Assembly: GCA_905178155.1 (NCBI GenBank)
Contig: CAJINV010000004.1
Location: forward strand, 7,563,820-7,627,819
Source of the DNA: Amoebophrya sp. A120
Taxonomy: Eukaryota; Protista; Dinoflagellata
Length of the DNA stretch: 64,000 nt
Reading direction: 5' to 3'
Shown: positions 6,151 to 58,089 of the stretch, in pieces
Position numbering within the stretch: the first letter of the stretch is position 1
Layout: each line of letters opens with the position of its first letter
Translations under genes and position numbers: made by a program
The notes under the pieces: model-generated
What the model was told of the DNA's origin: nothing
The model's database searches: none
The model's input: only the letters and a program-made list of their open reading frames with translations

Positions 6151-9100
6151 TTACAGCTCCTTCTTCATGTGCCGCTCCTTCAGAAAGATTCCGGCATCGG
6201 TGTCGAGCTTCAAGGTCACCGGACCGAGCCGGAGCACCGTTTTCCAGAAGACGACGAACAAGCGAAAAAACGGCATGTAGAAGGGCTGGAACAGCAACAC
6301 ACCCGTGAAGTACGGCGCCGATTTGCACCACGGGGACCCCGCAAACCGGAAGCCCAGAAACGACGCAAGCCAGTCGACATCCACCTCTATCAAATGCAAA
6401 AATGTCTGGGTCGGGAAGAGTCATGCTGCTTTTGCATGACGCGTAAGGTCTGGCATGGAAGCTGTAGCATCACAGATTTCGAGAAGCTTCCGCAATGCCG
6501 AATTCCGCAATGCCACATTTTGGTGACAGAAAGTGGGCAGCTTTTGCTGCCTATGCATGAGAGATTTTTATGTGTTGTGAAATGCGCATCACAAGTTCGC
6601 ATTCCTCCAGACCCAGACATATTTGCAGTTGATAACCTCGTAGCCGTCCTTGAACAGGTCGAAGTGGTAGTCCTCCAGATTCGCTGGCACGCCGCCGCAG
6701 GAAATTGTATCAAACGCAAATATGTCTGGGTCTGGAAGAATGCAAGTTTGTCATGCTTGTTTCACATGACTCTGAAATCTGTCATGTTGGGAGACTAAGG
6801 GCAGGGCGTCCCTGTTTAAAATCAAGACTACAAACTTAAGCCGCGTACTCGGTAAACTCTAAGGTACAAACTTGAACAGCGCGATTTCTATCGAGAGACA
6901 GCAACAGAAACTCCTGGGACGGCTGGGACGTGAGTTTTGTTGATATCTAGGTAGAAATAGCACTGTGCAAATTTCGTATCCTAGCACCGAGGGAACCAAA
7001 ATAAAAAGTAAAAAAGGAGTGAAGCGAAACACTATGACACAGCCCCATCTACATCAAAAAACCATCCTAGAAGCTGGTAGCTCGAATTCTAGCAAGACAG
7101 GAAAAAGTCTTGAAGAGGAGTTGCGATCGTAGCACCAACATCCAAGTCCAAGGACTAACATGCAAATGGCCAGGTAAACCTCGAGGTCGGTATGACATGC
7201 ATGACAAACTATGACGACCAGGATAATGTGCTACGAGACCAGAGGAGAGCATGACCAAACCGAGAAACCGCATGACAAGAGAGGGCCACGTTGCAACCAA
7301 TTCGAGAACCAGGATGGAAACATGAGTGCGAAAAACCCCTAGGAAAAAACTAAAGAGTAACTAGTATATAAATAAGTAGCGCGCGTAGTAAAACTAGACC
7401 GGTCAAACCACTTCTGCCTGTACCGTCTCTATTCTTTTTTCCCTTGCCACCCTAAGAAGTGGCACAACAATGCTAATCATACAAGAGCGATTTGATCATG
7501 GCGTGCAAGAACAGGCGCACGTGCCTAGTTTTCATTCCCAAAAGGCAAGAGCCTCTGCATACAAAATGCCAGAAACATCGGTCAAAATACAAACAAGATC
7601 GGACGACGCCGATGAAACCGAAGTGACTCTGAAATCTGTCATGCAAATTACCCAAGACCCCCATTTTGCTGTCATGCAGAAACGCAGTTTGTCATGCAGA
7701 ATAGGCAACACCTAGAAGCTCACAAACTTGTCATGCTGAGCCAGCACTTGTGGTCTCCTCATGATACGCCACCCAGCATCACAAGTTTCCAGACCCAGAC
7801 ATTTTTGCAGTTGATAAATTGGAATCAAGTACAAGATCGCAAGCTTGGCGGACCACATCAGAAGGCAGTGCATGGGCATCATGTAGGCATAGAGCAACCC
7901 CTTGCGGTGCGCGTCGGCGTCTTTCAGGGTCAGACCCTCGATTCGCACCGGGTAGTAGGTGCCGCGCAACTTCTTCAAAAACCGCAGGTACAGCGCCCAG
8001 CCCGCGTCGGCCCACTTGTCCGCGAGGTAACCGGTTACCGGGAAGCGGAAGTCGACCCAGTCGAAGGAGTAGTATCAAGTGCAAAAATGTCTGGGTCTGG
8101 AAATTTGTGATGCTAAAATATGAGTGGTGGGCGCACTGCAATACGCAGTCAAGCATGACAAATTTTTGAGCTGCTCTTGTGTTTCCTTTTCCGCATGGCA
8201 AACTGCGTTTCTGCATGACAGACAAGAGGCCCTTTTCCTGATCCTGCATCACAGATTTATGAGTCATGCCAGACACGCATGACAAACTTGCATTCTTCCA
8301 CTTCCAGACCCAGACATATTTGCATTTGATAAGTAGTGAATCGTTTCGATTCGGTCGGCGTGGTGCTCCTCCTTGTGCTTCTTGCGGTCCGCGAAGCCGA
8401 AGAGTTCCAGTGTCTGGTAGAACCACTTGGCGCCGACAAACCGGGCGCTCCACGGGTTCCAGGAGGTGAAGGCGAGGGTGTTGGTGTGGTACCACTCGTG
8501 CACCCGCACGTCCTATGCATTGCAAAAGTATCGCACTCGTATGCAGGCATTACAAATTTCCCCAGCATGAGAATTGAAATTTGTACTGCGGATTTACCTT
8601 AAGAAAAAGATTTGTAATGCATGACTGCAAGACGAGTACGATGCTTTTGCACAGGATACGTCCATCCACACGACGACGTTCCAGATCAGCGCGAACATCG
8701 GGTCCCAGCAGTTGATATGAAATGCAAAGATGTCTGGGTCTGGAAGAATGCAAGATTTGTCATGCATATTTCTCATGACACATGATGCCTGTAATGCATG
8801 ACCCAGCACCGCAGACTACTTTTAGAGGGCTTTCTGATGCGCCTTCCGCATGAGGAATGCCCTGTCCGCGTAGCACAAACTGGAGCCCTCTTGCTGGTCA
8901 TGCAAGAATACAAATTTCTTTAGAATCCAAAAACACCATGACAAGTTGCATCCTTCCAGACCCAGACATATTTGCAATGCATAATTGACGAAGATCAGCA
9001 TGTTCAGCGCCCACAGCATGGTCGGCTGGTGGATGACCACACGGTACACGTGCGGCGTGCGGGAGTACATGCTATGGAACAAGTGTCAGAATGGAAATTC

Positions 9101-10134
9101 TCAAAGTGGAAATAATTTGTGATGCATGAAATGCGACACCAAAAAGACTGTATTGCAGAGGACGCAATGGAGACTGACTCTTGTGCTTCTACGGGTTCAG
9201 AATTGGGCTGCTGATTAGCACGAGAGAAGGGCACACCTTTGCCCTAATTAGCATGACAGACATGTTGTTTGAGTGCCCGGGAAATCTGTCATGCGCCGAT
9301 GAGAAATGGGAATGGCGCTTCAAACAACTGGAATCGTTTTTTTGCATTAAAAATTATTTTCCCTTTGAGGATTTCCATTCTGACACTTCCATACATGCGG
9401 GGGTCCACGTAGTGGTGAAAGAAGGCCCAGGGGAACCCGATGGTGTGGTCCGCTTGCCAGGATTCGAGCATCACCATGTGCAGGTACAGGTGGACGATGA
9501 CGAACGCGAAGGGCTGCAACGCCAGCGCGAGCAGCAGGCGGGCGGCAATCACGTGAACCCAGGATTCCGCTCCGGGGTACAATGCGTTAGCTTCCCACTG
9601 GGTCACCAGGTAGACGAAAAATCCGCCGGTGAACACGTAGATGAAAAGGAAATCAAACACAACGAAGTATTTTTCCCAGCTATCGCGTTCCTGCATGAAA
9701 TTTTCGTACAGCGGGCCCCACTCCTTCATGTCGATGGCTTCTCCGACGACTCTCCCGTCCGCATCACGAGAAGCCCCGCGCGGCAGAGGTTCCTCGTCGA
9801 GTTCTTGGTTCTGTTCATTTTGCTTTGTTCCCATGGTAGTAGTTCTTGGAGATGACGCATGTTGCTGTTGATCTAGTACTCTGGTCTGCTTGCTACTAGA
9901 GGACTTGTCACCACAACGACGTTTACTGGTTGATGTGGAACAACTACTCGCCGGTGACTTGGAGCTGCTCTGCTTCTGCTTTTTCGACGTGGTGGGGGTG
10001 GTCCCGCGACTGCGCTGGATGGAGGTAGAGGTAGTTGTCGTGCTGCTCTTGGAAGACGACTTTGTAGTTGTCGTTGCTTCTTCGCCTCGATGCTCCTCGA
10101 GAAGCGTCGGCGCAGCCGGTTGCGTTACTGTCAT
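6151..10134 (-). CDS. His-box membrane lipid desaturase-like protein (TMEM189/PEDS1/FAD4-like), ~534 aa, 7 exons
   Basis: Removing 6 introners gives one ORF with TM segments and His boxes HLYLH, FFHHYVDP, HEWYH, HKEEHH, whose order resembles the Kua/TMEM189 desaturase domain. Confidence 0.6.
6388..6634. mobile_element. Introner family A (247 bp)
   Basis: TATcaaaTGCAAAAATGTCTGGG...CCCAGACATATTTGCAgttgATA; DR acctc; join DGYEV|DVDW; GT-AG register possible. Confidence 0.9.
6708..7816. mobile_element. Introner family A expanded to 1109 bp by a nested insertion
   Basis: Family A TIRs; DR aattg; join LIPI|SCGG. Confidence 0.88.
6785..7469. mobile_element. LTR-like segment nested inside an introner
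   Basis: TGTTG...CAACA termini, TATATAAATAA at 7365. The insert is bracketed by a 20-bp duplication (6767-6786 = 7624-7643). Confidence 0.45.
8073..8331. mobile_element. Introner family A (259 bp)
   Basis: TIRs; DR agtag; join TIHY|SFDW. Confidence 0.9.
8514..8658. mobile_element. Introner family B (145 bp)
   Basis: TATnnnnTGCAAAAGTATCGYACTCGT TIR; DR cgtcc; join WMD|VRVHEW. Confidence 0.9.
8716..8983. mobile_element. Introner family A (268 bp)
   Basis: TIRs; DR gttga/attga; join IFVN|CWDP. Confidence 0.88.
9073..9393. mobile_element. Introner family F (321 bp)
   Basis: TATGGA..AAGTGTCAGAATGGAAAT TIR; DR catgc; join DPRM|YSRT. Confidence 0.88.
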
Positions 10135-10837
10135 TTTTTTGTTTTCTGTTTTCACTTTCCGTCGTCAGAGGCAAAAATATTAAAAATCAACTAGAGACAA
10201 ACGAAAAGGCCGTAACTACGACTAGCGCGAGCGATCTTCTGGAACTATGCAGCAATAGAAACTATGTCACACGTCGGCGTTTCGGTCCTGGGTGGAAGAA
10301 TGTTGGACAGAAAGTGCAAGACAAATTTACACTTCCGCCACCCCCGTGGGCGATCTCCAACAAATGAAAAAGATGAGTCTCGATCAAAAACCATACTGAT
10401 ACTACTTCAACAGGCCAACATAGATGAAAAAAAAACATTCCCAAAAAAAGAAAAACGACGCGACAATAGTAGAGTCCACGAATAGGAATACGATTCGGAA
10501 ATAAATTAGAAAAAAATAGTACCGACTGAGAACAACGAGAATATCAGAAAGAACTTGTAGTACTAGGGTTCACAGAAGAAAAATCTTCTAGGGATACCGA
10601 ATAAGAGATAGACGGACACACTCATCAGAGCGAGTTCTAAAGCGATCATGAAAAAAAACTGATCCCTGAACAACACGACATAGGCACAGCGAAACTGCAA
10701 TTCCTTTTCATTACATGCACCTTGACCATGCATGATATCGACAGCGCAGATGCACCGCAAGTCGAAGTGTAGGGGCCAGGCGCCGAATTTTTGCAAAAAA
10801 ATCCCTCGGGGCGAGTGACTTTAACCCGTTTAATTAT

Positions 10838-12583
10838 TCAGCTCTGCGCAAACATGACCATTTCCGGCATTGCCTTTTCTAAAATGTCTGCCTCCTTGTG
10901 CGCGATGTTTTCATTTGGGACGTCCAGAGGGTGTTGCTCTACAAACAGCATCTTCCCGATCAAATTTCCGCCGTTGTACCGGTCCGGCGGCGCTCCCTCG
11001 TCGAAGAGCGACAACTCGTACCAGTGCGGCGGGTCCGATTTCGGCGGACAAATTTGCAAAAAATCCTGCTGCGCACCCCCAACCCGGGCTTTCGCCATCC
11101 GCCCGAGAAAAGGAATCTTTTCCGACCACTGCAAGATCGACGCGGAGGTCTTCGCCCCACCGAAAATGTCGTTTTGCAGCAAATCGAAGAATTCGCTGCT
11201 ACCCGCGACCGCTTATCAACTGCAAATATCTCTGGGTCTGGAGTGGAAGTTTGTCATGCTTGTCTCTCATGGCTCCGAACTCTGTGATGCATGAGCAGGA
11301 TGAGAGTCGCTTGTCTGTCATGCAAAAGCGCAGTTTGCCATGCAGAACTCACAACAGACAGCAGCTCAAGAACTTGTCATGCTTGGCTGCGTATTGCAAT
11401 GTGTCCACCATTCCCAAGCCAGCATCACAAGTTTCCAGACCCAGACATATCTGCAGTGGATACTGCTCCGTCCTTCGCAGTTTCGTCGTCTACTTTGTGG
11501 TATGCAGTGCAAAAGTATCGTACTAGTAGAAATCGCATTACAAATTCGGTCAGCATGACAAATGAAATTTGTCATGCGGTTTTACCTTGGTATGGAGATT
11601 TGTCATGCATGACTGCGATTACTACGAGTACGATGCTTTTGCAATGCATATGTGGAAATCGTAGACCACGTCCCAGTGCACCTTCCCGGTGGTTTTATCA
11701 ACAAACTTCGCGTGGATGTTTTCCACCTTCTTACTCAAGTCGATCCGCGGCCGTTTGTCGATGTTCCCGGTCAAAAAAGACGCGGTCGGGGGCATCGGGT
11801 GGCCGGCGGCTCTGTCGCAGATGAAGTTCTTGTTAAATTCCCCCTTGTCGTCAATGAAGTTGGTCGCGACGATATCCAAGGAAAAAACTGTGTTAGTGTA
11901 ACTATCTTTGGCTGACAGCATTACAAATTTGCAGCTCTACATGACAGAGAAAACCTCTCATGCGTGGCTTGTAAGGGAAAACACACACGAAGAGAGGACT
12001 TCATGGCTGTCTAGCATGACAGGTGTAACTCTGTTGCATGTTCAGTTCTGCATCACAGATTTACACTTACACAGTTTTTTTCTCGCATAGACGATGTTGG
12101 GGGACTGGTAGGCGACGGTGACTTTCAGATCGTGTTTGTACGCTTTGTGATAGTTGTTGGTTTGCAGGTCCAGGAGTTTCCGCCCCTCGTCGATGAAAAA
12201 CTCCTGGTATGGATTGTAAAAATGTCTGGGTCTGGAAGGTTGGAACTTGCATTGTAATGCTAGCTTTCCATACCTAGAGCTAGAAAATCTGTATTGCATA
12301 ACCAACAAAAGTCGCAGCCTCTTTTGTCATGCAAAAACGCAGTTTCTCATGCGCATTGCCTATGAGAAACCGTTTCGGGAAGTTGTCATGCCGGACTGCA
12401 ACATTCGGAAATGTTTTCATCATGCACATTTTAGCATCACAAGTTTCCAGACCCAGACATTTTTGCATTTCATACCTGGTTCTTCATCGCCGCGCTGGCG
12501 ACGTGATCCGTGATCCCCTTGACCGCGGTGTTCAGCGGGGCAGGAAACCCCGCCGCGAGAGCAGTGCCGACGGCGCCTGACAT
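10838..12583 (-). CDS. Hypothetical protein (~280 aa), 5 exons
   Basis: MSGAVGTALAAGF...; four introners removed give an 843-nt continuous ORF ending at stop 10838. Confidence 0.75.
11214..11462. mobile_element. Introner family A (249 bp)
   Basis: TIRs; DR ccgct/ctgct; join KDGA|VAGS. Confidence 0.88.
11501..11650. mobile_element. Introner family B (150 bp)
   Basis: TIRs; DR tgtgg; join YDFH|KVDD. Confidence 0.9.
11873..12089. mobile_element. Introner family E (217 bp)
   Basis: TAT..AAAAAACTGT TIR; DR gacga; join PNIV|ATNF. Confidence 0.88.
12208..12474. mobile_element. Introner family A (267 bp)
   Basis: TIRs; DR cctgg; join MKNQ|EFFI; GT-AG register possible. Confidence 0.9.
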
Positions 12584-13465
12584 ATTTACTTTATGTTTAT
12601 CGGAAGTTTTTACGACAGTAAAAATTACTTTGAGTTTGAAAGCTGTATTCAAAAAACCTGGGGAATCTACCGTCCTCACTGCTGGCGCAGCAGCCCGCAG
12701 TGAAAAATAAGCACGCGCTAGTAGTACCCCTACCTTGATGCGTCAAAGCAGTTCAGTCGAGTGGATGGCGATCGACGTAGCTGATTCCTTGCGACAAGCA
12801 GCGATAATTTTGTTCGAAACCGATCGAAGCGACACGACAACAGAAACGAAGCAAATTTCATCCTCTCATCTCAGATATAGATATTGCGAAAAACGAAGCG
12901 AAATTGAAAATCGAAGTGTACGATCACAAACGCGCGAAAAGTCTACGAAAAACGATTTTTAACACTGACTCTGCTTCTCCCACAAGCGAAGTGGCATGTT
13001 GTCGAAGTAGCATGTCAAGTCGTCTGCGATGTACTAAAGGGTTTGTCGTCGTTTCGGTAGCAAAAGCGTATATTAGATACATCATACATACATTGCCGCT
13101 GTAATCTTGTCGTGTTGTTCGTCGACTGTATATTGTTCGGGAAAATCATGGTACTTAACTGGCTTGACACTACGTACTTCTACCAGGAAGTGAATTTACA
13201 GGCACTCCTACAAGGAGTCTGAATTGCAACAAAGTCGATTATCCCGATTTTCAATTTCAGGTGGGCGTCTGCATAACAGTAAAACAGGAACAAGTATAAC
13301 ACGATCAAGATCAATCTCAGGACGCGAGTCCGACAAAAAGGTATGTCAAATTGAAATGACAAAAAAAAACAATATCGTCCAGCAAAATAAATAAGCTCGT
13401 TGAATTTCAAATAGGCCGCAAACCAAGAAACCAAATTTCATGACCACAAACCTGTCAAATAATTC

Positions 13466-15178
13466 CTACTGCCTTCCCGAAGAGCTGTTGTCCAGCAGCG
13501 GCTCACTGAGGCCCGAAGGCTCCGACCGTAGATTCAGTCCAAAAGGACCCGGAGCTGCCGTGTCGCGGTCGTGATCGAAGGAATTCCTGGCTGTATTATC
13601 TTCCCGACTAGCTGCGGCGTCACCTCCTCCTCCGGTGCTTGTCAACACACTCATGACACTATGGGCGTGCACCGCAAGCGGAGGGCCGCGCAGCTCTCCA
13701 CCTGTCGCAGAGACGAGAAACCCCGCTGCATTCCGGTCCGCGTGATCATTCCGATCTATCGGTGCGTTTGGGACGCTCTGCGTTCGTCGCCCGACTGGTT
13801 CGAGAAAAGAGGCAAATGACGGCGGAGGGGGCCCAGGTGATGGCGCCGCAGGAGCTCCGTAACTGCTTACAGGTAAGGGGTCGGACGAGTTTAGATTTGC
13901 ATATGCTCCTCTCGTCCCTGTTTGCTCGTCCAAGAATCCGCTCTGAACACCACCACTTTCACTCGGCTTGTTGCGTGGGACCACATTATTATAGCCACCT
14001 CCCGACAGCGGGGACTGCTTATAGTACTGTCCATAGGTGCCACCGGAAATAGGTGACCCTAGAAATTGATTGTTGTAGTTGTTTCCACCTCCTAAAGCTG
14101 CACCTCCGCCAGGGCCGTAGACCGTGTTGTACGCCGCAAACCTGGCTTGCCGGTTCCGCGCGAAATTGATTGTGATCGTTCGCTTGTTGAGCGTGCCCTG
14201 GTTAGATGATAACAGATGGTTTGTCAAGTCGTTATTCGTGGTGAAATTATCGTAGCTATTGTGGTTTTTGCCGGGAGAAATCAGTTCCTCCGGATACACC
14301 GAAATCCGGCTGGCGGAGGAGCCGTTGGTTCCACGACCAGCCTTATCTATTGCCGTTACGTTTTGTTCACTCCCCCTCGCTCCTGTGCCGCGCGGAGAAG
14401 TTGTAGAGGAAATCACATTAATATCAGCTCCCGCTAGCCCGGGGCCTCCCCCTCCTAAAGGTGCAACCATTTTCATCATCGTCGTGGTCCCTGTCGTCGC
14501 TAAAAACTGTTGCTGCTGCTGATTCGATGTTTGTTGAGCTCCTGTTGTTCCTACGCCGTAGTTTTTCTGCGAAATCAAGCTGACCACTTGCTCTGACTGA
14601 ATGTCCGGCGCGTCCTCTAGAACATCCACGACTAACGGCTCGGCCAACGCGGAAGCGCTGTACCAAAACAGAATCCCAATCAGACAGGCCAGATTTCCCA
14701 AATAGCTCGGGGCGTCTCGTCTTAGGCAATTTTGCCCGTTCCCCGCGACGCACAGGCTGTAATTCTGGTACCAGGCAAAGAACAGAAACGCCTCGGACAC
14801 GAGAAAACTCATGGCCGCGGCTTGATCCAGGTTGAATTCCACGACCATGGTCCAGAAAAAACTCGGTTTCTGCTTGCTTTCCCCATCCATTCCTCCTGAC
14901 AGTTCGGCGACGTCGTTCGCGATTTGCTGTCCGGTGCGGATGAGGGTGAGGAGGCCCTTTAGTAGGAAATACCAAGCCAGCATAGTGATAATAGTCCAGA
15001 CGGTCGCGAAGACGACGTGCTCCGTGACCAGGCTGTCAGTGGTCGACGTGTCGCTATCATCGACTGGGATGACCGCTTTGACGCCCACAAGGTTTTCCGT
15101 GGTCATCTCGCCCTCTGCTGGTGTCGCCGTTGTCCAGTAGGACAAGACCGGGTCTGAAAGAGGAAAACGGGAGGTCAT
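13466..15178 (-). CDS. Hypothetical multi-pass membrane protein (570 aa), intronless
   Basis: Long ATG-initiated ORF with 3 N-terminal hydrophobic segments and a low-complexity G/S/N tail. Confidence 0.75.
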   Translation of the reverse strand: MTSRFPLSDPVLSYWTTATPAEGEMTTENLVGVKAVIPVDDSDTSTTDSLVTEHVVFATVWTIITMLAWYFLLKGLLTLIRTGQQIANDVAELSGGMDGESKQKPSFFWTMVVEFNLDQAAAMSFLVSEAFLFFAWYQNYSLCVAGNGQNCLRRDAPSYLGNLACLIGILFWYSASALAEPLVVDVLEDAPDIQSEQVVSLISQKNYGVGTTGAQQTSNQQQQQFLATTGTTTMMKMVAPLGGGGPGLAGADINVISSTTSPRGTGARGSEQNVTAIDKAGRGTNGSSASRISVYPEELISPGKNHNSYDNFTTNNDLTNHLLSSNQGTLNKRTITINFARNRQARFAAYNTVYGPGGGAALGGGNNYNNQFLGSPISGGTYGQYYKQSPLSGGGYNNVVPRNKPSESGGVQSGFLDEQTGTRGAYANLNSSDPLPVSSYGAPAAPSPGPPPPSFASFLEPVGRRTQSVPNAPIDRNDHADRNAAGFLVSATGGELRGPPLAVHAHSVMSVLTSTGGGGDAAASREDNTARNSFDHDRDTAAPGPFGLNLRSEPSGLSEPLLDNSSSGRQ

Positions 15179-15850
15179 AGTGTCGACGTGAGAGTGCTCT
15201 CAAAAACGACCAGCAGCTGATAGGAGAAAAAAGGTACAAAGCTCTAGTAGCACGCTGTTTATTCGTGGCAGGCACAGGGACAAAAATGTAGAAAATTTAG
15301 TGAGAGCAGGCGGGTCCAGTAAAGACCTGGCGCGACAATCACGGCAAGTTGCTTTCTTATTTTTTCGAAAACCAGATCACCAGCCTGGTGTTTTCAATAC
15401 CGCGAGACGTCGCGGCAGTAAGTACGGAGCCGGCAGTTCAAACCGAGCAAACCTCATGCAGTCGGCAATTCAAACCGAGCAAGTGGCCTCATGCGGTCGT
15501 GGATGAAGTGGCAGACCGAACAAGTTGGGCAAATCAACCGAAAATACGTATTCCTAGCTACCAAGTCAACCGAAGTTGTACCGACATATGCACCGACAAA
15601 GCAAGTAGCGAGTTGCGCCACTTTTTAGCTGCAAACAAATCGAATAGGACTTTTGAACAATTTTTTGTCGCCTGCTAGTAAATGGCGCCGTGGGGCCGTT
15701 CCCGTTCGTTTATGTTGTGCGATCGTCATGTGTAAAAACAAGTTGCACCGCAATTTCCTCTGGGCCCAAAAAAGCGCCGGCATCTGTATTCTCATGTGGT
15801 ATGATCAAGAAATTCCGCTTTGGCGGCCCAGCATATGGATTCGCCGCTCT

Positions 15851-18800
15851 CTAAATATGCACCGGCATGCACCCTTCGCCGTAGTAGACAAATGGTACAT
15901 TGCCAATCTCCGCGGCGGTTTCCCCAAAGAAGCTGTTACTTATGATCAGTGCCGTCGCACGGGACAAGCCTATGTACTCGGTCCAGGCGCGATGGTAGCC
16001 CGCTTGAGACATCCCAGCGGTTCGGTCCACGTGCTGGATGGCTGCCGTTGATGTTGAAGACCCTGTGTTTCTAGTTGGACTCGTCGCGCTACTGCCACTA
16101 CTACTATCTGCTACTGCAACGAACTCGTTCTCCACAAAGCTGGCGACTTTCCCGGCTTGCACTAAGGCCTGGACTTCCTCGGTGACCCAGAACTGCTCGG
16201 AGTCGGCAGAAAAGTACCAGGGCGTGGATGATTCCAAAATCTCCGCCTGGACTAGTTTGTCCTCCACTTGGACGGCGCATTCCAAAAACGAGGTTATCGT
16301 CGTCAACCCGTGCCGGGGTGGGTCTTTGAAGGAGTGCAGCGTTTCGTTCCCCGCGCGGAAGTGCAAACCGAGAAAGCTTTTCTTCGCCCCGAACTTACTC
16401 AACGGGTACAGCACTTTCGCGTGCGGCTTGAACAAAATGTTCCAGACCTGCGCGACCCAGCCGGAGGTGAAGGCGAAAAAGCCGTAATTATGCACTGCAA
16501 TAGTATTGTACTCGTATAAATGCATTACAAATTTGCTCAGCAACATGAGAAATAAAATTTGTAATGCTAATTTACCTCAAGGAAAGGATTTGTAATGCAT
16601 GATTTCCATACGAGTACGATACTTTTGCACTTGATAGTAATCCTCCTGCAGCCAATCGTGGATCAAGGCGTGGTATGCGGTGCAAATATGTCTGGGTCTG
16701 GAAACTTGTGATGCAAGGAACGGAATAGTGAAAACAAAACACTGTAATGCGCTGCCCAGCATGATAAGTTTTCCCGTGGTTCAGAGTTGCGTACTCGGCA
16801 TGAGAAACTGCGTTTCTGCATGACAGGCAAGACGAGCTCTTCGCGGCCACGCAATACAGAGCTCAGAGTCATGCCAGACTAGCATGACAAATCTCGCAAT
16901 CTCCCAGACCCAGACATATTTGCAGTGCATACGTGGAAGCGGAGGTTCGTCCCGATCACGAGCACCTCGGGGGACACGCGGAGGCCGCGGAGTGTGCGGT
17001 CGACCTGGTGCTCGGAGAGGTCGACCAGTTGCACTCGGTTGTTGAGTGGTAAATCTTCTATCCGGACCCGCCAATCGAGAAAGGAGGGTAACAGCACCTC
17101 TAACAACGGCCGTGGGTGTCGGATGTCGATGAGGAATCCTCTGTGCGTCGCGACGGCGAGCAGAAACAGGGACAGGATCCCGTGCAGCCGATCTCCGTGT
17201 CCGCCGCACATGGGCAGCCCATAGCACGCGGCGACGATCGCGCCTTTCAGGTTGCTTGGCTGCCCGGACCGCCACTTTCGGTGCTGCTGGATGTAGTCCG
17301 CCATGATTTGCTTGAACAAATCGGTTATAAATTGAAAAAGTAACGTGCTCGTATAAATCCATTACAAATTTTCTCAGCATGAGAAATAAAATTTGTAATG
17401 CGGATATACCTTGAGAAAAAGATCTGTAATGCATGATTGCAATACGAGTACGATACTTTTGCACAGGATATCGGTGCTTCTTTGCCGGTGGGACAAGCCC
17501 GCGAAGAGCTTCGTCTCTTCACTCGTACTATGCATTGCAAATATGTCTCGTGGGTCTGGAAACTTGTGTTGCTGGTACTCGCATCGCAAAGTAGCCAGTT
17601 GTGCAGCGTGACAGCATCACAAGTTCTTTTCCTCCGCTGTTTGCGGATTCATTCGTACTTAAACTTAGCATTACAAACTGCCTCTTCTCAGCACGCCAAA
17701 AAAATTGGCCATCAATCCCATTTATGCATTACAGATCTTGTTGTCCTTGAAGTTCTGCATCACAAATTATCCAGCCCCAGGCACATTTGAATTGCATACG
17801 TGCGCAGCCCGATGGAAGAAACTCCCTGGTCAAAGTGTAGGTTGGGAAGATCGGACGCTTCGGGGTACCGGAGCCACCGACAAGAAACTGTAAGTAGTGA
17901 TTTTTTTGATTTTCTTTTCGTCTTCCAATGGACGCATGGCGATAGCAAAGGTAAATCAAAATCAATACACATACTCCGCTCGTCTGTGCATGAGAACAAC
18001 TTTCGCGTCAAATATCATAGTGTACTACCTGTAGTATTCGGCTTCAAATTATTGATCAAATCGTGGTCAAAAAACGTTCCACAGAGATCCGGCCCCTGCC
18101 TGGTGTACTGCTTCCGCCTCGCATATTCGATAAAAGTATGACCTGCAAAAGTATCGCACTCGTATAATTAAATGCATTACAAATTGAAATTTCCTCAGCA
18201 TGTGCATGGGAGATAAAATTTGTAATGCATGACTGCAATACGAGTACGATACTTTTGCACAAGATAAAAAGTCACTGGCTGCAACGTTTTCGCCGCCACC
18301 GCCGCGCCGGCGAACTCAGTACTGGCTGAAGCCTCCGTCTCTCCGTCTTCAGATATTAAAGCAGCACTCGCCGTTTCGTTGCTTGCGGTATCTTCTATTT
18401 CACTGTCTGCTTCCATTTCTACTGCGGGACCACGAGCTGCCGACGGCCTGGTGACTTCTATGATGGTTTCCTGCACAATTTGCGCGATCTTGTTCGGGCT
18501 CAGCTCGTCGAGCGTGGATTCCGTCGGGAAAACCACCACCCGCCCGGGAATTTCGTGCTGGGCCTCCACTTTCTCTTGCGGGGGACGGATGGCGGACAGC
18601 TCGGGGACCCTGTTTGGGATAGAAGAAAAGGGAGTATAGTACGTGCATCACATAAGCGCTATGTATTTGTGATAGAAAAGGGACAACTTCTACGTCCAAT
18701 AATAAAGTGCCTGAAGTTCATGTTCCATCACTTCAGTGCAGACCGATAGTGGTCCTGCAGTTTTTCTTCTTGTGGCAGACGCAGATCACAATAAACTATT

Positions 18801-20453
18801 CCATTCTAATACCCTTCAGCCACAACAGCCTCGAAATCGACGTCATCACCGGCATCAGCTCCTCCGTCCGAACTACCTTCTTCGCCGCTAGTTATCTCAA
18901 AACTGCTCTCGATCTGCTGCAGTTCCAGATGCAAAACGGATAGAGCGGTGGACAACTTCACCGCCTGGATTTCCACGAAATCGAGCAGGAACGTGTTGTC
19001 GTTCATTCCGTACCGTTCATAGTTCATCACGTCAGAGCTGTTCACACTTATGCACTGCAAACTAACCATCGCACTCTACGTAGTAGATTTTATCGCATGA
19101 CAAATTTTTCCAAGAGGAAAGTTGTCCTGCTGATATTCACACAAGAGTCGAGATCTGTAAAAATACAGTTCTTTTACTGAAAAAACTTCTACAAGCAGCG
19201 TACGATAGTACTTATTTGCAGTGGATAACACTCCTTGGATCTTCGTTCTTCACCTCCTCCCATATCTTGTGATTGCTCCCCCAGGTCCAATTTTTCGGTA
19301 AGGGCAGCTGGTCGATGGTTTGGATCGAGTGTAAGTTCGGTTCTAGGGGTACGGTGTAGAGAAGGTTCTGGATGGTTGGCGGGCGCGGGTTGTTTTGGCC
19401 ATCTTCGTTGTCTTCATCCCCAGAGGTGGACCCTGCATGTTGACCTCCACGACCTGCATGAACCACTTCGACTTCATTCAAGTAAATCGCTTCGTCGACC
19501 GGGCAGTTTAAGTCCTCCCTATGAACTGCAAAAGTATCGTACTCGTATAAATGCATTACAAATTTCCTCAGCATGAAAAATGAAATTTGTAATGCGGATT
19601 TGCCTTAAAAGAGAGATTTGTATTGCATGATTGCAATTACTACGAGTACGATACTTTTGCACAGGATACTCCCGCTGCCTCAGCAAGTCGCTCATTTCTT
19701 CCAGGACCTCCATATGGATTGCAAAAGGATCTTCGCTGTACTCGTTCTAGTACAAATTGCATTACAAATTTGCTCAGATGAAAATGGAGTTTGTCATGCT
19801 GGTTTACAACCTTGTTAGGAAGCAGATTTGTGATGCACATCTGCAATTACTCGTACGAGCACGTGATACAACTTTTGCATTTGATACTCCAAAAAAGGCG
19901 ACACCAGCGGCTCTTCCACCGAGCCAATCGCGTAGCAGATGTGCCGCACGATTTCGGCGACCAGTTTCTGCAGTACCTCCATACCCTTGTCGTAGGCGGA
20001 AAGTAGTGCGGGTAAAACTTCTATATCCTGTGCAAAAGTATCGTATTCGTAGTATGTAATCGCAGCCATGCATTATAAATCTCCATCCCAAGGCAAAACA
20101 GCATGACAAATTACATTTCTCACACTGACGGTGAGCAAATTTGTAATGCGATTCATACTAGTACGATGCTTTTGCATTTCATATTCTATCCTCGATCGCA
20201 AGGCGCAGGGGAACTTTTCCACGTCGTCGTCGAACCGCGTCATGAGTCTTTCTGCACGTTCCACAATGGGTTGCCGCAAGTGCACCTCGCGGTACCCAAA
20301 CGCGTTGTTCAGCGCCAGCTTCGGAAACTGCCGCTTTTCCTCGCTGCAGCACGCGAGCTCCTCCCGCCCGGCGTCTGGACCAAACGTGGGAACAAAGCAT
20401 TTTTGGTAAAACGGGATGAGAGCAACGAGGCCGGAAGCTGCGTAGGAACGCAT
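15851..20453 (-). CDS. GT-B fucosyltransferase-like protein (~866 aa), 12 exons
   Basis: 9 introners and 2 GT-AG introns removed give a 2601-nt ORF. Motifs CGGHGDRLHG..SLFLLAVATHR, LGLHFRAG, YFSADS and LSRA..IISNSFFGETAA resemble alpha-1,2/alpha-1,6/O-fucosyltransferase motifs. N-terminal hydrophobic segment. Confidence 0.65.
16489..16636. mobile_element. Introner family B (148 bp)
   Basis: TIRs; DR gtaat; join QEDY|GFFA. Confidence 0.9.
16674..16931. mobile_element. Introner family A (258 bp)
   Basis: TIRs; DR cgtgg; join LRFH|ALIH. Confidence 0.9.
17326..17470. mobile_element. Introner family B (145 bp)
   Basis: TIRs; DR tcggt; join RSTD|LFKQ. Confidence 0.88.
17529..17798. mobile_element. 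Introner family A, degenerate (270 bp)
   Basis: Eroded TIRs; DR cgtac/cgtgc; join GLRT|SEET. Confidence 0.82.
17888..18028 (-). other. Canonical GT-AG intron
   Basis: ACAG|gtagt...ttacag|TTTCT removes an in-frame stop and restores frame. Confidence 0.7.
18137..18266. mobile_element. Introner family B (130 bp)
   Basis: TIRs; DR aaaag; join PVTF|IEYA. Confidence 0.88.
18610..18812 (-). other. Canonical GT-AG intron
   Basis: GAAGG|gtatt...aaacag|GGTC with a pyrimidine tract; frame restored. Confidence 0.7.
19049..19227. mobile_element. Introner family B, degenerate (179 bp)
   Basis: TAT..TGCAAA termini; DR acact; join PRSV|NSSD. Confidence 0.82.
19520..19668. mobile_element. Introner family B (149 bp)
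   Basis: TIRs; DR ctccc; join RQRE|DLNC. Confidence 0.9.
19713..19886. mobile_element. Introner family B, degenerate (174 bp)
   Basis: TIRs; DR ctcca; join PFLE|VLEE. Confidence 0.85.
20024..20183. mobile_element. Introner family B (160 bp)
   Basis: TIRs; DR ttcta; join SRIE|VLPA. Confidence 0.88.
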
Positions 20454-35228: not shown

Positions 35229-38200
35229 TCACATTACGACGCAGTTCGTTGTCTCCTCTTCCTCTTTTGCTTTCTCCCTCGCGGCTTCCTCGCGCCTTCG
35301 CTCCATTAAATCCATCGCGAACATGCGTTTTTCCGCCTCCAACGCCCGGTTTTTTTCCTTGTTTGCTTCCCGGTACTGCGCGGCCGTGGCGAGGAATTTC
35401 AGGTCTGGCGGGTCGGTGACGAGCCCGTCCGTGCGGACCGCGCCGGCGATCACCGGGGGGAGGCTCCGCGGGGTCAGCTGCGGCGACCCGAGTTTGTTCG
35501 CCACCGACTCGTATCAATTGCAAAAGTGTCTGGGTCTGGAAGATTGCAACTTGTCATGCTAAATCTGAATCTGTGTTGCATGATTACCAAAGACTGTCCA
35601 CTTTTGACCTAATCGAGAGGCAGTTTCTCATGCAGGATAGGCATAAAGTGATAGAACTCTCACAGAGTCTGTCATGCTAGGTCCTACATACCAGACCTCA
35701 TGGGTCAAATAAAACCTGCATGACAAGTCTGGTACTCTTCCAGACCCACACACTTTTGCATTTGATAACTCGCGCCGAGAGGGCGGGAGGGTGGTGGTGA
35801 TCACGGAGAGCTTCGTGGAGGTGGGGGAAGGGGGTTGGTTCGGGTTGTAGAAATTGTTCTTGGGGGTGGTGTTATAAAGGGGGGAGTTCTGTTGATTACT
35901 GATGGCAGTGCCCGGACTGTAGGAGGAGGAGGACCTGGTCGTGTTGAAATTATCTCCGGGCGCCGTCGGGAACCTGCTTACTACGGAGGTGCTAGGAGGA
36001 CTAGGCACTCCTGTCGGTGTAGTGGAGTACGCATTTGCATGTGGTTGTTGTGCTGCGTAGTAGTTATTAACGTTGCCGTATAACGCAACACCGCCTCTCG
36101 GTGTGGTCAGCGGTGCCACTGGACCCAGCATACTCAACATCCCGGCTCCAGCCGGGGGAGCCTGCAGACTGCCTGCGTTTGAAGATCCGGCGAAGGTAAC
36201 TACATTTCCAGCTTGTGGTCTTGGCGTCAGTGACTGCACTGCGAGACCATTGACGTTCTGGCGGCCGACTGCCCCGCTATTTGTCGTGTCGTATCTGCTG
36301 CTCAGAAAATCTTTGGTACTAAACAGTTGAAGTCGCGAGGACCGTCCATTGGTGCCTCCACAACTCGCGTTGCTTGGAGCTGGCTCCGCACTCTTACTGC
36401 GTTGCTTTGTGCGGAGGAATGTTGACGTCGATGGATAATTGTTGTACACTACACCACTTGATGCAATCGGAGGACTCACTGGCGTGTGTGGGGACACCAC
36501 GGATGCCAACAAACTTGGTGGCGGGGTCAAGCTCCTCTGGGTTGCGTACTGTAGATTGTGCTTCGACGCGAAGAGAACGTCGTTGTAGTGCGCAGGAGTA
36601 GCTCTACTGTCGTACCCATTCGTCATTCCAAAGCTTTCCGCGTTGGTGACAATGGAGGGGATATCAGACACGATTTTGGACCGCTCCATGTACCGGCGGA
36701 ACTTGCGTTTCTGCTCCGCATATCAAATACAAAAGTGTCTGGGTTTGGAAGATTGCGAGATTTGTCATGCTTGTCTGGCATGACCAAAACGCTTGTGATG
36801 CGTGTCAAAGTAGAGACCCTTTTGCCTGGCATGCAAAAACGCAGTTTGTCATGCGAAAAACGCAACACAAAGAGGCGCAGATATTCATAAATATTTCTCA
36901 TGCTTGCCTGTGCATTACAGAGCATTCACTATTCCCAACGCAGCATTACAAGTTTCCAGACCCAGACATTTTTGCAGTTGATACCGCACTATAGTCCGCG
37001 GCAGAGGTGGGATCGGCGAAATTGATTTTCGCCTGGGGAAAGGGGACCTGGATGGGCGACACGATGTTCTGTCGATTCGCGGAAAAATCCTTGATCAGTG
37101 GCTGTTTCTTGTTCTTCGAGTTCATCACGATTATTCCGTTCGACGACGACGCGGCCCCGCTCAGTTGTAGTCCGAGTCCCTCAACAGAGTTGTTATTATC
37201 GAGAAAATTGTTTCTGCTGAAGAGATCAGTGTTTGCACCCGGTCCTCCCGGGGGAGATGCTACGGTGCCCGGAGAGAGGGTTCGCTTGGAGGAGTTCGCG
37301 ATGGTCTCGGTGTCGAACAAGAATTCTGTGTTGTTTGTTCCAGGAAAAGAAGATGAACCAGGACCAGGAGGATTATTGTTCACGATTTCCGCCAACTTCA
37401 AAGCCACGTCGCGATCGTGGACAGCGATATGCATTGCAAAAGTATCGTACTTCTCGTATTAATCATTTATTAATCGCAATCATGCAATACAAATTTCTTT
37501 CTCAAGCCAAATCCGCATCACAAGTTTCATTTCTCATGCTGAGCAAATTTGTCATGCGATTACTGATAGTACGATTACGATATAGTTTTACACTGCATAA
37601 GCGATGTTTTTCTGCAGCCCCTGTCGCACATTTGCGGCGGTGACACAGCCGGCTTTCAACCGTTGCACGGAGTTTTCGTTCAACGTGTCCATCACGTCCG
37701 GTTGCGGAAACATGTTGCTAATCTGCAGACTATGGATTGCAAATATGTCTGGGTCTGGAAACTTGTAATGCTAAAAGTGAATGGTTGTAGACGCACTGCA
37801 ATACGCAGCTACGCATGAGAAATTTATTGGCTCCCATGTCTTACTTACGTATTTCGCATGGCAAACTGCGTTTTTGCATGACAGACAAGAGGGCCTTTTC
37901 GTGTCTATGCAACACAGATTGTTCTCGAGTCATGCCAGACAAGTATGACAAACTTGCATTCTTCCAGACCCAGATCGATATTTGCAATCCATACAGACTG
38001 TGGGGCAGCGAGTTCGTGTCCAGAATTTCCGAAATTTTCTGGTTGTCGTACTTCGTACTGCTTGTGTGCCCCCACGTGCTCATCCCTAACCGGTGGTCCC
38101 ACGTGTTGTCGAGCAAATTCACCGGCTTTTTGTTGTAGAGGGTTGTCAATTCCGGTTGGTGGTTTTGCAACTGGGACGTGACGTAGGGGTTTTGTAGCGG

Positions 38201-41200
38201 AGAAGTCGGCGAGGTGTTTCTCAGGATGTTGCTCGAGGACGTGTTCTTGCTGTTGTCTTTTTTAATATTCTTTCCACTTCTACTAATCTCTTCTACTGCG
38301 TGATTCTGATTTTTCATCCCTGCTGCGGCATTAGTCATCTCATCGTGGTTAATTATATTCGCCGTGGTTTCCGCTATCGTGGACGGAATGCGCATGATGT
38401 TGTTCCGCTTGCTGTTCACGTCCATTTTGGACAGCAATTTGCTTCGCGCATACGTACTCGCGGTGCTGCCACTGCTTGGATTTTGCACGGACATCTCCTG
38501 CAGCTGCCGCACGGCGTGCTGAATATCGCCCAGATTTTTACTACTCTCCCGGTAATTAATATCGCGGCCGAAATTCTTACCGGGAGGACTGTTCGGCTGG
38601 GACAGGTACTGCTCCTCAGCCGAATACTCCGCTTCTTTCTGCAGATTCCTGCCGGCGTCGGTGAAAAAGTACTGCTCGCCCGCACTCGCCGAGGGCTGAA
38701 ACGGTATTTGCGCGTCGTCCGAGAGTTGGGAAATCTCCGTCAGCAACTGCCGGGTGGTGCGGGTTTCTAGTGTTTGCAGAGCCTCGCCCTCCATTTTTGT
38801 CATCCTCGTCGTGTTTGATAATAAATTGGGCACCTGTAGTTGTTGTATTCTTTCTTCTGCGGCAAGAACCGCAAAAGGAGCTGCAACAGCAGCACGGCTG
38901 CCAATCTCGGCCGCGTAGGTCGTGATGTTGCTCGATGAAAATGCATTTGATACTATCTTCCCTATAGTCGCCGCGCCGGCCACCGCCACCTCCCCCCGCG
39001 GGCCACAGTCCAACGTCTTTTGCTGCAGCTGCGCGCCCGGGGTCAGCGCTTTCTCCGCGGCCTTGTACTGGTTCCAAGTCGCGCTGGCGCCTTTCGAGTT
39101 GTTCTTGCGGGGACTGTTTTTATTTCCCTCCTCGTCATTCATCTGAAGTAGATTCGGGTACACCGAGGGCTCCAAGTTACGGCTTTATCAAATGCAAAAA
39201 TGTCTGGGTCTGGAAGGTGGCAACTTGTCATGGTAAATCTGACTGAATCATGGAAAAATCTGTGTTGCATGACTACCAAGAGCTGTCCACTTTTGACCGA
39301 GATAGGATGGAGTTTCTCATGCAGGATGGGCATGGCAGAGACCTCGCGGAGTCTGTCATGCCAAGTCCCGCATTCCAGACCCCATGGGTCATCGAAAATC
39401 TGCATGACAAGTTTACACTTTTCCAGACCCAGACATTTTTGCACTTGATAGGCTCTCCTGTGCGGATATTTCCTTTACCGGCGGCCGGGGGGAGTGGAGT
39501 AACAATTTGCGGCCCGTGTGGTCATTATCTGCACCAGCGCCTGCTGCTTCCTTGGACCGTCGCTGGAAATTATTATACTCGGGTGGTGGCGGCGTCGTTC
39601 TCCCGCGCGGGGGTGTAGCGGGGCAGCTCAGAGACCGTGGCGTGGAAAGAACTCCGGTGAGATTATTGTTGTCGAAAACCCCGCCGGGCGTGCCGAATTG
39701 GTAGGGTCGGCTGAAAAGATCCAAGCGTGCGGCTTGTGCCGGGGAAGGTTTCTTGCTCGGGAGTTTGTCGGCCGTGGGACTGTTCAACATGCTAGGTGTC
39801 CTCGAGGTCCCGGGGTTAGGAGAGTGGAGAAGTTGTGGAGTTGGCTTTATTTGTTCCGCCACCACCAGCTGCCCTTTGCTGTTCCTCGGACTGCTCGTGA
39901 TCTCTGAGGGCGGCGGTGTCGTACGCTGTCGTGGGGTCGTCGTCGTGGGGCCAGCACTGCTCGTGTAATTGTTGTTCGCCAGATCTTGTTTTAGCAAGTT
40001 CTGTCCACCGCTCAATCGCCGTGGCGTGGAGAATCCCCCAGCAGTGATAAATGCAGACGTGCTTTGCAACTTGGGCTGTTGCTGATCGAAATTTTTATCC
40101 ATCTTTAACATTTTCACTCCAGTAGAATTGTTCAAGGCTGTATTTGTTGTTGGGCTTCTTGGTGGGGCCGACGTCGCGGTGTTCTTGACTTGACTTGTGT
40201 CCAGGAAGAAGGTCTGTAAATCCTTCTCCAACGCGTTGATTTTATCCGATAGAGATTCCAAAGACGGCTGGGGTAGGGGTGGTGTCGATGTAGCTCTTGG
40301 GGCTTGATGAAATCCACTCTCCACTGCTGGAAGAGAAATAAACGCAAGCTGCGGCTGCACTTGCTCCCCCTCACTGAAAAACTTCATCGGCGGGCCCTGC
40401 TGTGCCTGATGTTTATTATGTACTACACCACTTGCGGCAGCACCTCCACCTCCTTGACTGGACGTAATTCCTCGTAGTTCGGAGACTTCTCTACTCCGCT
40501 GGCTTTTTTCCCGTGCTGCCGCAGCCGCCATCGACATGGAGGTGGCATTGGCAGCAAACGCGAAGACCGCGGCGTCGGTGACGTTCGGGTCCTGGATGTT
40601 GATGCGGGCGCGCTTCAGACTATCTGTCGACAGCGACTTCCGGGGATCATTTTCATTTTGCAGTAAAATGTCGTTCCTGCTGTACTTCGTGTTGTTGTTC
40701 TTCCCTTCAGCTCCTGCGCTATCGTCGTTCTCCTCAGTGCTGCTATCGTCACTGGCTTCTTCCGAGTCAAACAAGTGCGCCATGCTGTTTTCATTTTCAC
40801 CATTCTGCGACAGGTGGTTTCTAATCGCGGAGCCGAATAGGGAGCTGCTGTTGTTCTGCGAACTACTTCTTTCCTTGTTCTGGAGAAACACACTGGCACG
40901 GTCCACGGCGCTTTGCAACACGGCAAAAGTCTGCTCGCTTTCTTCGTCGTCTTGCTCCTGGTGGCTACCTGTGTTCACCACCAGAACATCATCATGATCC
41001 CCAGCGCTCCTGTTCTGCTTGCCCTCGGCAAAATGGTCCGACATCCTCAGAGTACTGCCCGTCATGGCGCTGCGCATATTAAAGAACGGGGAGGAGTGCA
41101 AGAACCCCGGTGTTGAAGATCCCCCTGGTGCAGCTCCTCCTGCCGGGCTGTTTGTACCCATTCCACTTAACAGCCCGGCCTGCTGCAATCGCTTCTGTTG

Positions 41201-44200
41201 CATCGCGTCTGCTGGGGAAGAGGACGACGGCGTGATCTTGTTGTTCCCCGCAGAGTTTATTACGTCCCCCCCCGCCGGCGGCGCGGCGACGGGATCGCTC
41301 TGGTCGTGCTGTCCTGGTTGCTGCAAAAGACCTGAGCCCGACTGCAGTTCTCGTCCTGTATCAAAAGAGGTATTCGACCGCAAGAGCCCATACCGGTTGT
41401 CTTCCTGCCTCATGAACCGCGGACTGGGCTCGCTCTTTTCCCGCTCGCGGAGCTTCACCAAGGTTAACGCCGCCTTCATGTCACCCGCACCCGCGGAGAT
41501 GTTGAAGATCCTTTCCAAAACGTCCGCATTTTCAAGCTGTCCCGAGACCGCGTAGTCATCGACATTTGCATTCGATGTTGTGGACTGCATCGACATGGTA
41601 CTATCACGCATCAACTGCCGCGAAGAGGAGTGCCTGTCTTGAGGTGCTAGTCCACCCTTGTTGCGAAATGCCAACAGCCCAGATGAATCACTGTGCGAAA
41701 AGCTGTTTGGGCCGTTTTTCGGAAGTAGGCCTCCCGCTGGCGTGGTCGTTCCTTTGCTGTTTGCCGGAGTAGACACGATGTCCACAACTCGCGGGGCGGC
41801 TTTGTTGCCACCACTTTCGCTTGCTCTACTTGGCAAAAGATTTTTATCTTCTTGTGCATCTCTAGCGCCTACTGCGTTTTCCACGGGCGCCGCTGAACCG
41901 GAGGAGTCCACCATGATCTCCCCCAAGTCGTTCAAACGCAGGGATCCGCGTATGGATGTGTCAGAGTTGAAATCGACAAAGTTGAGATAATTTGCCATGC
42001 ATAAAATGGATGCCAGTTGGAGCCGAGTTTCTAAGTGGCGCATGACAAATTTCGGCGGTCCCGAAATGCAGTTTGTCATGCTGTTTAGGCAAAGAAGAGT
42101 GATTTTCTTATGCTACTTTAGCAGCTCGAGCTGTAACCCCAAACAGGCTTACAATCGGCCTCACTTGCCTGCTCTGCAACACACGTGCCTCGGGTCATGC
42201 ATTTTATGCATTACAGATTATTTCAACTTTGACGATTTCAAGCCTGACGCTTCCATACCACGCTGGTGGAAAACACTACCTGTTGTTCCGGACGGAGACA
42301 CAGGAGTAATTCCAGCTGTACCAGCGATCCCGCTGCCATTGGTCAGCGATTTTCGCAGTGACGAAGAAGATGCTCCTGTTTGTTGTTGTTGTTGTTGTTC
42401 GAGCCCGCCGGACAACAAACTCGGACTGCTGCCCCCGGCGGACACCAAACTTCCGCCCGGAGCAGGTACAACTACCCCAGCACCACCGACGTCTTTCGTT
42501 TTCGTCCGGCTACTTGTAGTGCTGTCCTTTTGATTTTGCAACTTTTCCGACTCTTTTTTCTTTTCCGCGTCCTTCTCGATGGTCTGGTTCACCACTTCAT
42601 CGACCCCGCAACACGTGGCGCCGATGTTGGCGTGCTATGCATTGCAAATATGTCTGGGTCTGGAAACTTGTCATGCTAAAATGTGCATGATGGCAACACT
42701 TCCGAATGCAGACCAGCATGACAACTTTCCGGAGCACTTTCTCATAGGCAGCCCGCATGAGAAACTGCGTTTTTGCATGACAAAAATGGCTGCGGCTTTT
42801 GTCGGTTATGCAATACAGATTTCCCAGGAGTGTAAAGCTAGCATTACAAGTTATAACTTTCCAGACCCAGACATTTTTGCAGTCCATACGTCCACCTCCT
42901 CGACGATCTGGGCCGCGGCCATGGAGCTTTCCTCAGCGAGTAATGCATTTAACTCGTTCATGGGGTCTCTCGCCTGCGGGATGTTCATCACTCCCAGCTG
43001 CTCCAATCGGTACCTCACATCTGTCTCGTTCGCGTCCCCGAGCACCGACTCCCGCTCCGTCCGCAAGCAGGTCTGGCGGAAATGCTGCCGGGAATTCGGG
43101 ACGTTGGTCACTTCGTTGTTGTTGATCCTGCCGCAGATCTCCTCCGCCAGCTTCGCCACCCGGTTCTTTTGCAGATACGGCGCGAGACCCGACAACCCCA
43201 GCCACTCCAACTTCTTCTCCAACGGGAAGGACGACTGCCGCACGGAGTTCCGCGCGACCTCGCACACGTCAATCGTATCAAAAGGAAAAATCCCTCCTCG
43301 TCCCCATATCGAAAACGAAATTTGTGATGTTTACATGAGTACACAAATCGACTTGTAATGCTAGAAGGCCAAGAGACGCAGCTGTGGCCTCGTTTGCAGG
43401 CAATTGATCATGCTGTTTCCACTTCCACCAGCTGCCCCCTGTCATGGTGAAGATGCAAGGCTTCATCTCCACGCCAACCAGCACTACAGTCCGCATCTTT
43501 TCCCTTCTGGCATGACAAAGCTGATTTGTGGCCACAAATCTGCATCACAAATTTCTAGTTTGAGTATGGGGTGGGGGCATTTTTCATTTTGATAAATCGG
43601 CGACAGCCGCCAGTAGGTCCGGGCGACCGCGTACTCCTCTAACAAAGGCTCCCGCGTGTTGTGAAACATGACCGGGTCGTCGGTGGATAAGGTCACGTTC
43701 AAACCGCGTTTGAAAAAGGAGAAAAACGGGTTCTTCGCGTACTCCAGAAACAGCGCGTTGTTCGACTGCGGGGAGACGGAAATCCCGATTTGCGCCAGAT
43801 AATACACGTACTGCATCACGGGGGAGTGGTGCAGTCGGATCCCGTGGGCGATCGTATCCGCGAGCAGAAACCCCACGTCCAAATTCAGCAGGTCGCCCGC
43901 CTCCCCGCAGTGCGGCCGGTAGTGGAACTGGTTCAGACCGAGTTTCTCCCGGAGTAGATTCAACACCCGGATGTTCGCGTAGATAAAGTAGCTGTAGTAG
44001 GCGTAGGGTGGATTCGCGTTCTCGAAGCTCCAGTACCCCGGTTCCGTGACCAACCGGTTCCGCCTGTCTTCCGCGACCGCGGTCTGCAGCGCCACCGTGT
44101 CTTCCTGGGACTCGTCATCCACGGTGTCAAAGGCGCCGACGTGGGTTATGGGATTCTCAAATGTTACATTCTCAACTGTAGTTACATGATTTGTCATGCA

Positions 44201-57960: not shown

Positions 57961-58089
57961 TTCTGACGCCGGAGGGACACATTATAGTCTAACTTTCTTG
58001 CGTATGGGCAAAAAGGTAAAAAACAAAGCTACGACATGTTGCAGCACAATGGAGTAATACCTGATTATGTTCATCGCCCGACGCCCCGG

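Follow-up and report, generated by a model that had tools for sequence, protein, structure and literature searches.

The introner elements of the dinoflagellate Amoebophrya sp. A120 are described in the text of Farhat et al. 2021 (PMC7789003) as starting with TAT, followed by seven variable bases and an A run, with 3-5 nt direct repeats, a length of ~240 nt and non-canonical intron ends; how tens of thousands of non-GT-AG introns are removed in Amoebophrya is left there as an open question. The introners of Polarella glacialis and Aureococcus are transposons with terminal inverted repeats and target site duplications that serve as introns either way round and are seamless after losing one duplication; as far as the preprint on them was covered, they carry or recruit GT, GC or GA together with AG, and one orientation is favored among the simple two-way classes (bioRxiv 10.1101/2020.10.14.339549). 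Here, we analyzed a 64-kb stretch of A120 DNA (contig CAJINV010000004.1, positions 7,563,820 to 7,627,819; hereafter the window, to which all coordinates refer unless a locus is named), in which 42 elements resembling miniature inverted-repeat transposable elements (MITEs) span 6388 to 52286. They match the published A120 introner elements feature by feature, including exact removal with non-canonical ends. Such elements and two-way introners as such are already known; in the present data, members of the same families are removed exactly in both orientations, without a need for GT/AG and with no significant orientation bias. The elements leave the transcript either way round together with one copy of a 5-bp target duplication, probably through the ordinary U2 spliceosome reading signals that lie in their inverted repeats.

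Compared with the introners of Polarella and Aureococcus, the A120 elements are likewise introns either way round but accept any 5-mer, show no detected bias and lack the GT/GC/GA plus AG pattern that the preprint gives. Splice sites derived from transposon inverted repeats and used by the U2 spliceosome are also reported, in the relevant parts of PMC11282704 and bioRxiv 10.1101/2025.08.15.670264, for the non-canonical MITE introns of Fritillaria borealis, where the ends are fixed as AG-AC/AG-AT, whereas in the A120 elements the terminal bases are free and only intron positions +2/+3 and -7/-6 are fixed. The euglenid nonconventional introns treated in PMC11282704 share non-canonical ends, inverted repeats and junction repeats that resemble target site duplications, but end pairing is said to define them, with pyrimidine/purine junctions, whereas the A120 elements show free junction bases and no selection for pairing. 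The text of PMC7789003 calls the splice sites variable relative to the hairpin, in contrast to the fixed polar register found in the window, and neither the orientation of elements nor branch points are dealt with in its searched text. Our literature search, which covered the words of PMC7789003, PMC9860276 and PMC12130899, with figures and subscription journals outside it, found orientation neutrality, a fixed register or polar end constraints of A120 elements nowhere in print; the portions seen of PMC12621601 and PMC12005148 contain nothing on orientation, the organism name had no match in Dataset S2 of PMC12130899, and the figures of PMC7789003 (logos, S19-S25) may show part of the register.

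The elements, found by a terminal-motif scan and then by wider scans, lie in eukaryotic DNA of ~50% GC. They run from TAT to ATA (5′ TAT in 40/42, 3′ ATA in 42/42), with 25-30 nt inverted at the ends, and measure 130-323 nt, except for one further copy with a nested insert. Among the elements recognized from their ends alone, the 5-bp flanking duplication is exact in 21 of 26 and matches at four of five positions in the other five; any other duplication length was rejected, no exact case of 3, 4 or 6-9 bp occurring in 41 elements, a set found partly with a 5-bp filter. Besides a long family, with subgroups A and B, and a short family, we distinguished several smaller ones. The repetition into families was confirmed by surveys of the window and of 151 loci (L001-L151, 415 kb) of another assembly, which were found by a pattern scan and carry the same families at an identity of at most 94%. 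In 214 elements, positions 11-13 of the element end are A in 190-203. Short, non-coding and bounded by inverted ends and a duplication of constant length, the elements have the features of MITEs, and judged by this build they are non-autonomous DNA transposons, the introner elements of Amoebophrya A120, which insert either way round. No open frame in the long copies of the loci exceeds 142 amino acids (aa), and a transposase-coding autonomous partner was found neither in the window nor in the 415 kb of related loci. Four copies of 481-972 nt (L024:632-1465, L075:4024-4995, L053:3862-4492 and L052:571-1051) have intact ends and duplications and no long open frame, and are probably nested insertions. 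A Transib identity was rejected on the termini, TAT here and CAC in Transib, which also makes a 5-bp duplication. No Rfam family matched in the window, and the element repeat had no match in viral contigs.

That family members lie in both orientations, as the first-pass annotation had proposed from three pairs, was confirmed by global alignment, in which these pairs are reverse complements at 79-83% identity, compared with 57-65% on the same strand. The elements at 12208 and 42636 are 83% identical as reverse complements and 57% on the same strand (interiors without the inverted ends, 81% and 48%), and a 28-mer at 12325 recurs as its exact reverse complement at 42755; the corresponding values are 79% and 58% for 8073 and 11214 (interiors, 75% and 48%) and 81% and 65% for 19520 and 26327 (interiors, 74% and 54%). 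The orientation split in the window is 7:9 for the long and 7:3 for the short family. The 151 loci contain 333 elements with flanks, of which 214 have a confident strand call of their own and 271 a locus strand; the transcript strand came from a codon model that was right at 41/42 window junctions and concordant in 177/177 cases within loci, and intron status was inferred from restored frames, without RNA. At these loci, the long family splits 49:58 (p=0.44) and the short family 13:21 (p=0.23), a count that left out 48 long-sized and 10 short-sized elements of unassigned family; no family is significantly biased.

The host genes are on the minus strand, as had been claimed before; restored frames, Pfam matches and a leave-one-gene-out codon model (minus at 41/42 junctions) agree on this. 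Cutting out each element plus 5 nt yields long minus-strand frames, for example 2385 aa across 11 elements in both orientations, and minus-strand exons matched the Pfam domains AMP_deaminase, Bin3 and BCNT (4/14 queries). Two public proteins labelled Amoebophrya sp. A120, P0001 and P0002, one from each exon search, are identical to our spliced models over 19 elements (7 and 12, respectively).

We further compared the window over 6640-26600 with contigs from four runs of a single study that are probably RNA (X1-X4). Among the 15 joints listed of 21, 14 skip exactly one element plus 5 nt, and one corresponds to a canonical GT-AG intron (17888-18028, minus strand; 141 nt skipped in X4) that serves as a control for spliced RNA. 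At 16674-16931 (long A, '+'; orientations are given as on the plus strand), element plus 5 nt is bridged in contig pieces, X4 record 5 leaving 32 nt for a 37-nt exon. Removal of element plus 5 nt is thereby shown by probable-RNA contigs for 15 of the 20 elements in this interval; those at 19049, 19520, 19713, 20024 and 25867 are not among the joints listed. Joints exist for long A in '+' (8073) and '-' orientation (6708, 11214, 12208), long B in '+' (8716) and the short family in '+' (8514, 11501, 16489, 17326) and '-' (26327), so that both families act as introns either way round, in line with the first-pass annotation. In X3 record 11, a '-' and a '+' member of long A (6708 and 8073) are joined within a single contig, five joints sharing the depth. 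In the raw-read runs X9 and X10, only partial matches inside elements were obtained (439 and 9 reads), which we read as another strain or few parasite reads.

Within a perfect duplication any register yields the same mRNA, and therefore only mismatched duplications reveal where the cut falls. At 8716-8983 (long B, '+'; joint 8711/8985), mismatched at the last base of the duplication in transcript sense (N5), the downstream copy supplies that base, which limits what is kept of the upstream copy to a maximum of 4 nt; at 11214-11462 (long A, '-'; joint 11207/11462), the fourth base (N4) is that of the upstream copy, of which at least 4 nt must therefore be kept. The second base (N2) at 17529-17798, a diverged long element, weakly '+', whose joint skips 275 nt, and the residue that P0002 carries from the upstream copy at 42636-42888 (long A, '+', mismatch at N2, outside the contig-covered region) each require at least 2 nt. 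The old long element 51728-52025 ('-', 5′ end TAC), whose duplication has decayed to 1/5 matches, is still removed as element plus 5 nt in P0001, which needs four or five upstream bases. One register, shown at these few sites and generalized, fits all: the intron consists of N5, the element and N1-N4, with the cut at N/TAT…ATA-NNNN/. The cut is asymmetric, 1 nt ahead of the 5′ end and 4 nt past the 3′ end, and it tracks transcription and not element orientation; '-' copies keep 4 nt or more and '+' copies 2 nt or more, which rules out the mirrored register. There was no need to assume a flexible register in which both copies of the duplication code; 17 of 37 single mismatches alter a residue. 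Junction phase at the 4-nt register, over the window and the 151 loci, is 0 in 109 of 225 cases and 1 and 2 in 51 and 65 (p=5e-6).

At this register, the donors of the 42 elements are GT (15), TT (13), AT (8) and CT (6), and the acceptors are arbitrary. GT-AG occurs in 8 of 254 elements; G at +1 is barely enriched (91/254, p=0.08 against flanks), and a terminal AG is at chance level (22/254, 19 expected), so that U2-type GT…AG ends are lacking and only the T at +2 is fixed. In Table S4 of PMC7789003, as far as it was covered, the leading non-canonical splice pairs have T at +2 in 9/9 cases in A120 and 9/9 in A25.

The end variants are polar as well. In transcript sense, the third base of the 5′ end is changed nine times (seven TAC, two TAG) and the last base of the 3′ end six times (five ATG, one ATC), and the reverse classes were both empty (9:0 against 0:6, p=0.0002; strict set 7/4, p=0.003); this count omitted the false pairings L013:1429, L029:3468 and L032:2493 and a strandless variant in L127, and included L027 and L036 from the core survey. 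Given two-way insertion, such polarity suggests that the RNA is under selection, for U+2 and A+3 at the donor and for A-7 and U-6 near the acceptor. The first-pass annotation had inferred that introns usable in both orientations must be recognized by symmetric features, strand-specific signals being unlikely. The need for two-way features is supported, GT/AG is dispensable and the interior is strand-indifferent; symmetric recognition is not supported, since the asymmetric cut follows transcription and the two ends tolerate different changes. An inverted repeat gives the transcript the same 5′ and 3′ sequence either way round and can thus carry ordinary polar signals.

How such signals would be read can be outlined from the repeat. 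With the same repeat at each end, the transcript would always present N/UAU(G/C)… at the 5′ side and …UUUUGC-NNNN-AUA-NNNN/ at the 3′ side. U+2 and A+3 of the repeat would form the donor core, which we regard as a donor mimic because the cell's own donors resemble G/GUAU: among 29 candidate canonical donors, kept from 99 predicted canonical-intron rows of a noisy prediction, GTA occurs in 20 and GTAT, the modal form, in 10. The 3′ signal may consist of A-7 and U-6, with A-7 as a possible branch adenosine, which is the least certain step, and the acceptor would then be set by distance. Short fixed distances between branch and acceptor occur in some lineages. The requirements for G+1 and for the final AG would be relaxed together; as G+1 and the last G of the intron pair with each other when the exons are ligated, such a joint relaxation would be coherent. 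The hairpin may help the two ends to meet without being the code. We think it most likely that, in either orientation, the branch site lies at a fixed distance, which had been named beforehand as an outcome that would refute symmetric recognition. We put forward tentatively, as a possibility, the full version, in which a U2 spliceosome ignores G+1 and the 3′ AG, uses a U+2/A+3 donor and a branch at A-7 and cuts by distance, so that a single repeat provides the donor as well as the branch signal and each insertion, whatever its orientation and target, forms a perfect intron. U1, U2 and U5 proteins, together with SF1, SF3b, U2AF and PRP8, are listed for A120 in the sources covered.

The first-pass annotation and Farhat et al. 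both lean towards a euglenid-like explanation, in which the terminal hairpin defines the intron, that is, the repeats pair and the cut, made by a spliceosome or an endonuclease and ligase, lies at a constant distance from the base of the stem. All 41 elements folded have their ends paired, over ~24 of 30 nt and on either strand, with no difference in folding energy between strands (p=0.66); removal is undisturbed by an 837-bp insert, the geometry would allow a fixed 1/4 offset from a stem, and 5 of the 6 last-base variants are A to G, which preserves a U·G pair. A hairpin acting as the code would make G·U outnumber A·C mismatches, but in transcript sense the two stand at 151:149 in 214 elements, so that there is neither a wobble excess nor a sign that a hairpin is selected for in the RNA; transversion mismatches, of which there are 426, are tolerated. 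Moreover, in the nine variants the third stem pair is lost through 5′ UAC or UAG, whereas the 3′ partner A-7 is never altered, not even to G, which would keep the pair. The elements thus share the paired ends of euglenid introns and lack the RNA selection for pairing, and we consider recognition by the hairpin unlikely.

Somewhat less probable still is that a protein bound in the RNA to the repeat core or to an internal TGTCATGC-like motif places the spliceosome, the terminal bases being chemistry sites only. The motif occurs in all families, ~3.2 times per element (absent from 6/254), at 12.6 per kb compared with 8 matches in 43 kb outside, and points forward close to the 5′ end and backward close to the 3′ end; U1 snRNA, moreover, is undetected in A120 in the sources covered. 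The binding sites of DNA transposases, however, give the same mirrored layout, and families with different repeat cores follow the same element plus 5 nt rule. That the joined forms are DNA without elements, from empty alleles or programmed excision, would fit with the guessed RNA status of X1-X4 and with the empty site that loss of element and one duplication leaves, but is highly improbable, as X4 also skips the canonical intron, X1-X3 leave whole bins uncovered, the DNA-like run X6 covers all bins, reading through the element at 19049 and entering others, and the junctions combine bases from the two duplication copies in the polarity of the transcript.

Several points, in addition to the universal stem and the undetected U1 snRNA, weigh against removal by a U2 spliceosome that reads polar signals in the repeat at a fixed register in either orientation. 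The RNA status of X1-X4 is a guess, and their contigs are unstranded, come from a single study and do not reveal how efficiently the elements are spliced; P0001 and P0002, for their part, are annotated proteins and not reads. The register is bounded from above at a single site, 8716, and the short family may lean to one orientation (16:28 pooled, p=0.10). The end rule has exceptions in a 5′ TGT (L017:2262) and a 3′ ACA (L057:2321), and an element in L068 has GAT at both ends and no duplication, being a decayed copy. The splice pairs in Table S4 of PMC7789003, in the part covered, may reflect aligner preferences. Both canonical introns lack the fixed AT at -7/-6, the element 3′ end being no copy of the native acceptor, and our de novo predictor of canonical introns is noisy and placed the 3′ end of both known introns wrongly.

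A fixed register with two polar dinucleotides leads to exact predictions, namely a lariat branch at A-7, a U+2/A+3 donor and no dependence on the stem. Any insertion would be a seamless intron, with orientation and target sequence costing nothing, which would explain the invasion; the same +2/+3 rule would also suit A25, where the repeats begin with TTA and every leading donor is TT.

Element-bearing host genes on the minus strand, supported by restored frames and the codon model, also occupy 6154-10164, 10841-12742, 15854-18647 and 18809-20528, and a gene with a Bin3 domain (Pfam) lies at 23944-27297. The long A element 6708-7816 ('-') contains the 837-bp insert at 6767-7643, bounded by a 20-bp duplication, and is still removed exactly, the joint skipping 1114 nt (1109+5) in X1-X3. 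It is followed by 8073-8331 (long A, '+', duplication AGTAG; 264 nt skipped in X1, X3 and X4), 8514-8658 (short, '+'; 150 nt) and 9073-9393 (another family, like 41951; 326 nt). In the second gene, joints skip 155 nt at 11501-11650 (short, '+'), 222 nt at 11873-12089 (another family) and 272 nt at 12208-12474 (long A, '-'), where the transcript duplication CCAGG gives a chance GT-AG at the 4-nt register. Further joints skip 153 nt at 16489-16636 and 150 nt at 17326-17470 (both short, '+'), 135 nt at 18137-18266 (short-family-like) and 166 nt at 26327-26487 (short, '-'; X1-X3). The frame is restored at 19520-19668 (short, '+') and at 20024-20183 (short, '-'), where an X4 contig piece begins at 20184. 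Further elements in minus-strand host genes between 6154 and 26891 start at 6388, 19049, 19713, 25867 and 26613.

The AMP deaminase gene (35232-47103, minus strand, assigned by Pfam) encodes 2772 aa, as in P0002, with a low-complexity C-terminal extension of ~1900 residues, and has 12 elements in both orientations, at 35512, 36721, 37428, 37731, 39186, 41951, 42636, 43276, 44147, 44580, 44953 and 46746; those at 36721-36983 (long A, '-'), 37428-37599 (short, '-') and 37731-37993 (long A, '+') match P0002, as does 42636-42888. It also contains the canonical intron 45302-45554, which, like 17888-18028, begins with GTAG and has ACTAC close before the final ACAG; this ACTAC is possibly a branch motif very near the acceptor. 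A gene of 1122 aa (48515-53682, minus strand) carries seven elements, at 48803, 50097, 50313, 50652, 50909, 51728 and 52072, and its model equals P0001 with the 4- or 5-nt register only.

Outside these genes, 58112-63616 holds an array in which 12 or more TAT…ATA units, each 173-251 nt long, contain the internal motif of the elements and have no Rfam match; constant flanks (CGCTG/GACTG and GGCTC/GACTT types) replace the target duplications, and the array may consist of tandemly duplicated old elements or be a composite repeat. Other tandem arrays lie at 27808-28033 and 57571-57986, with units of 11-12 nt and of 76 nt.

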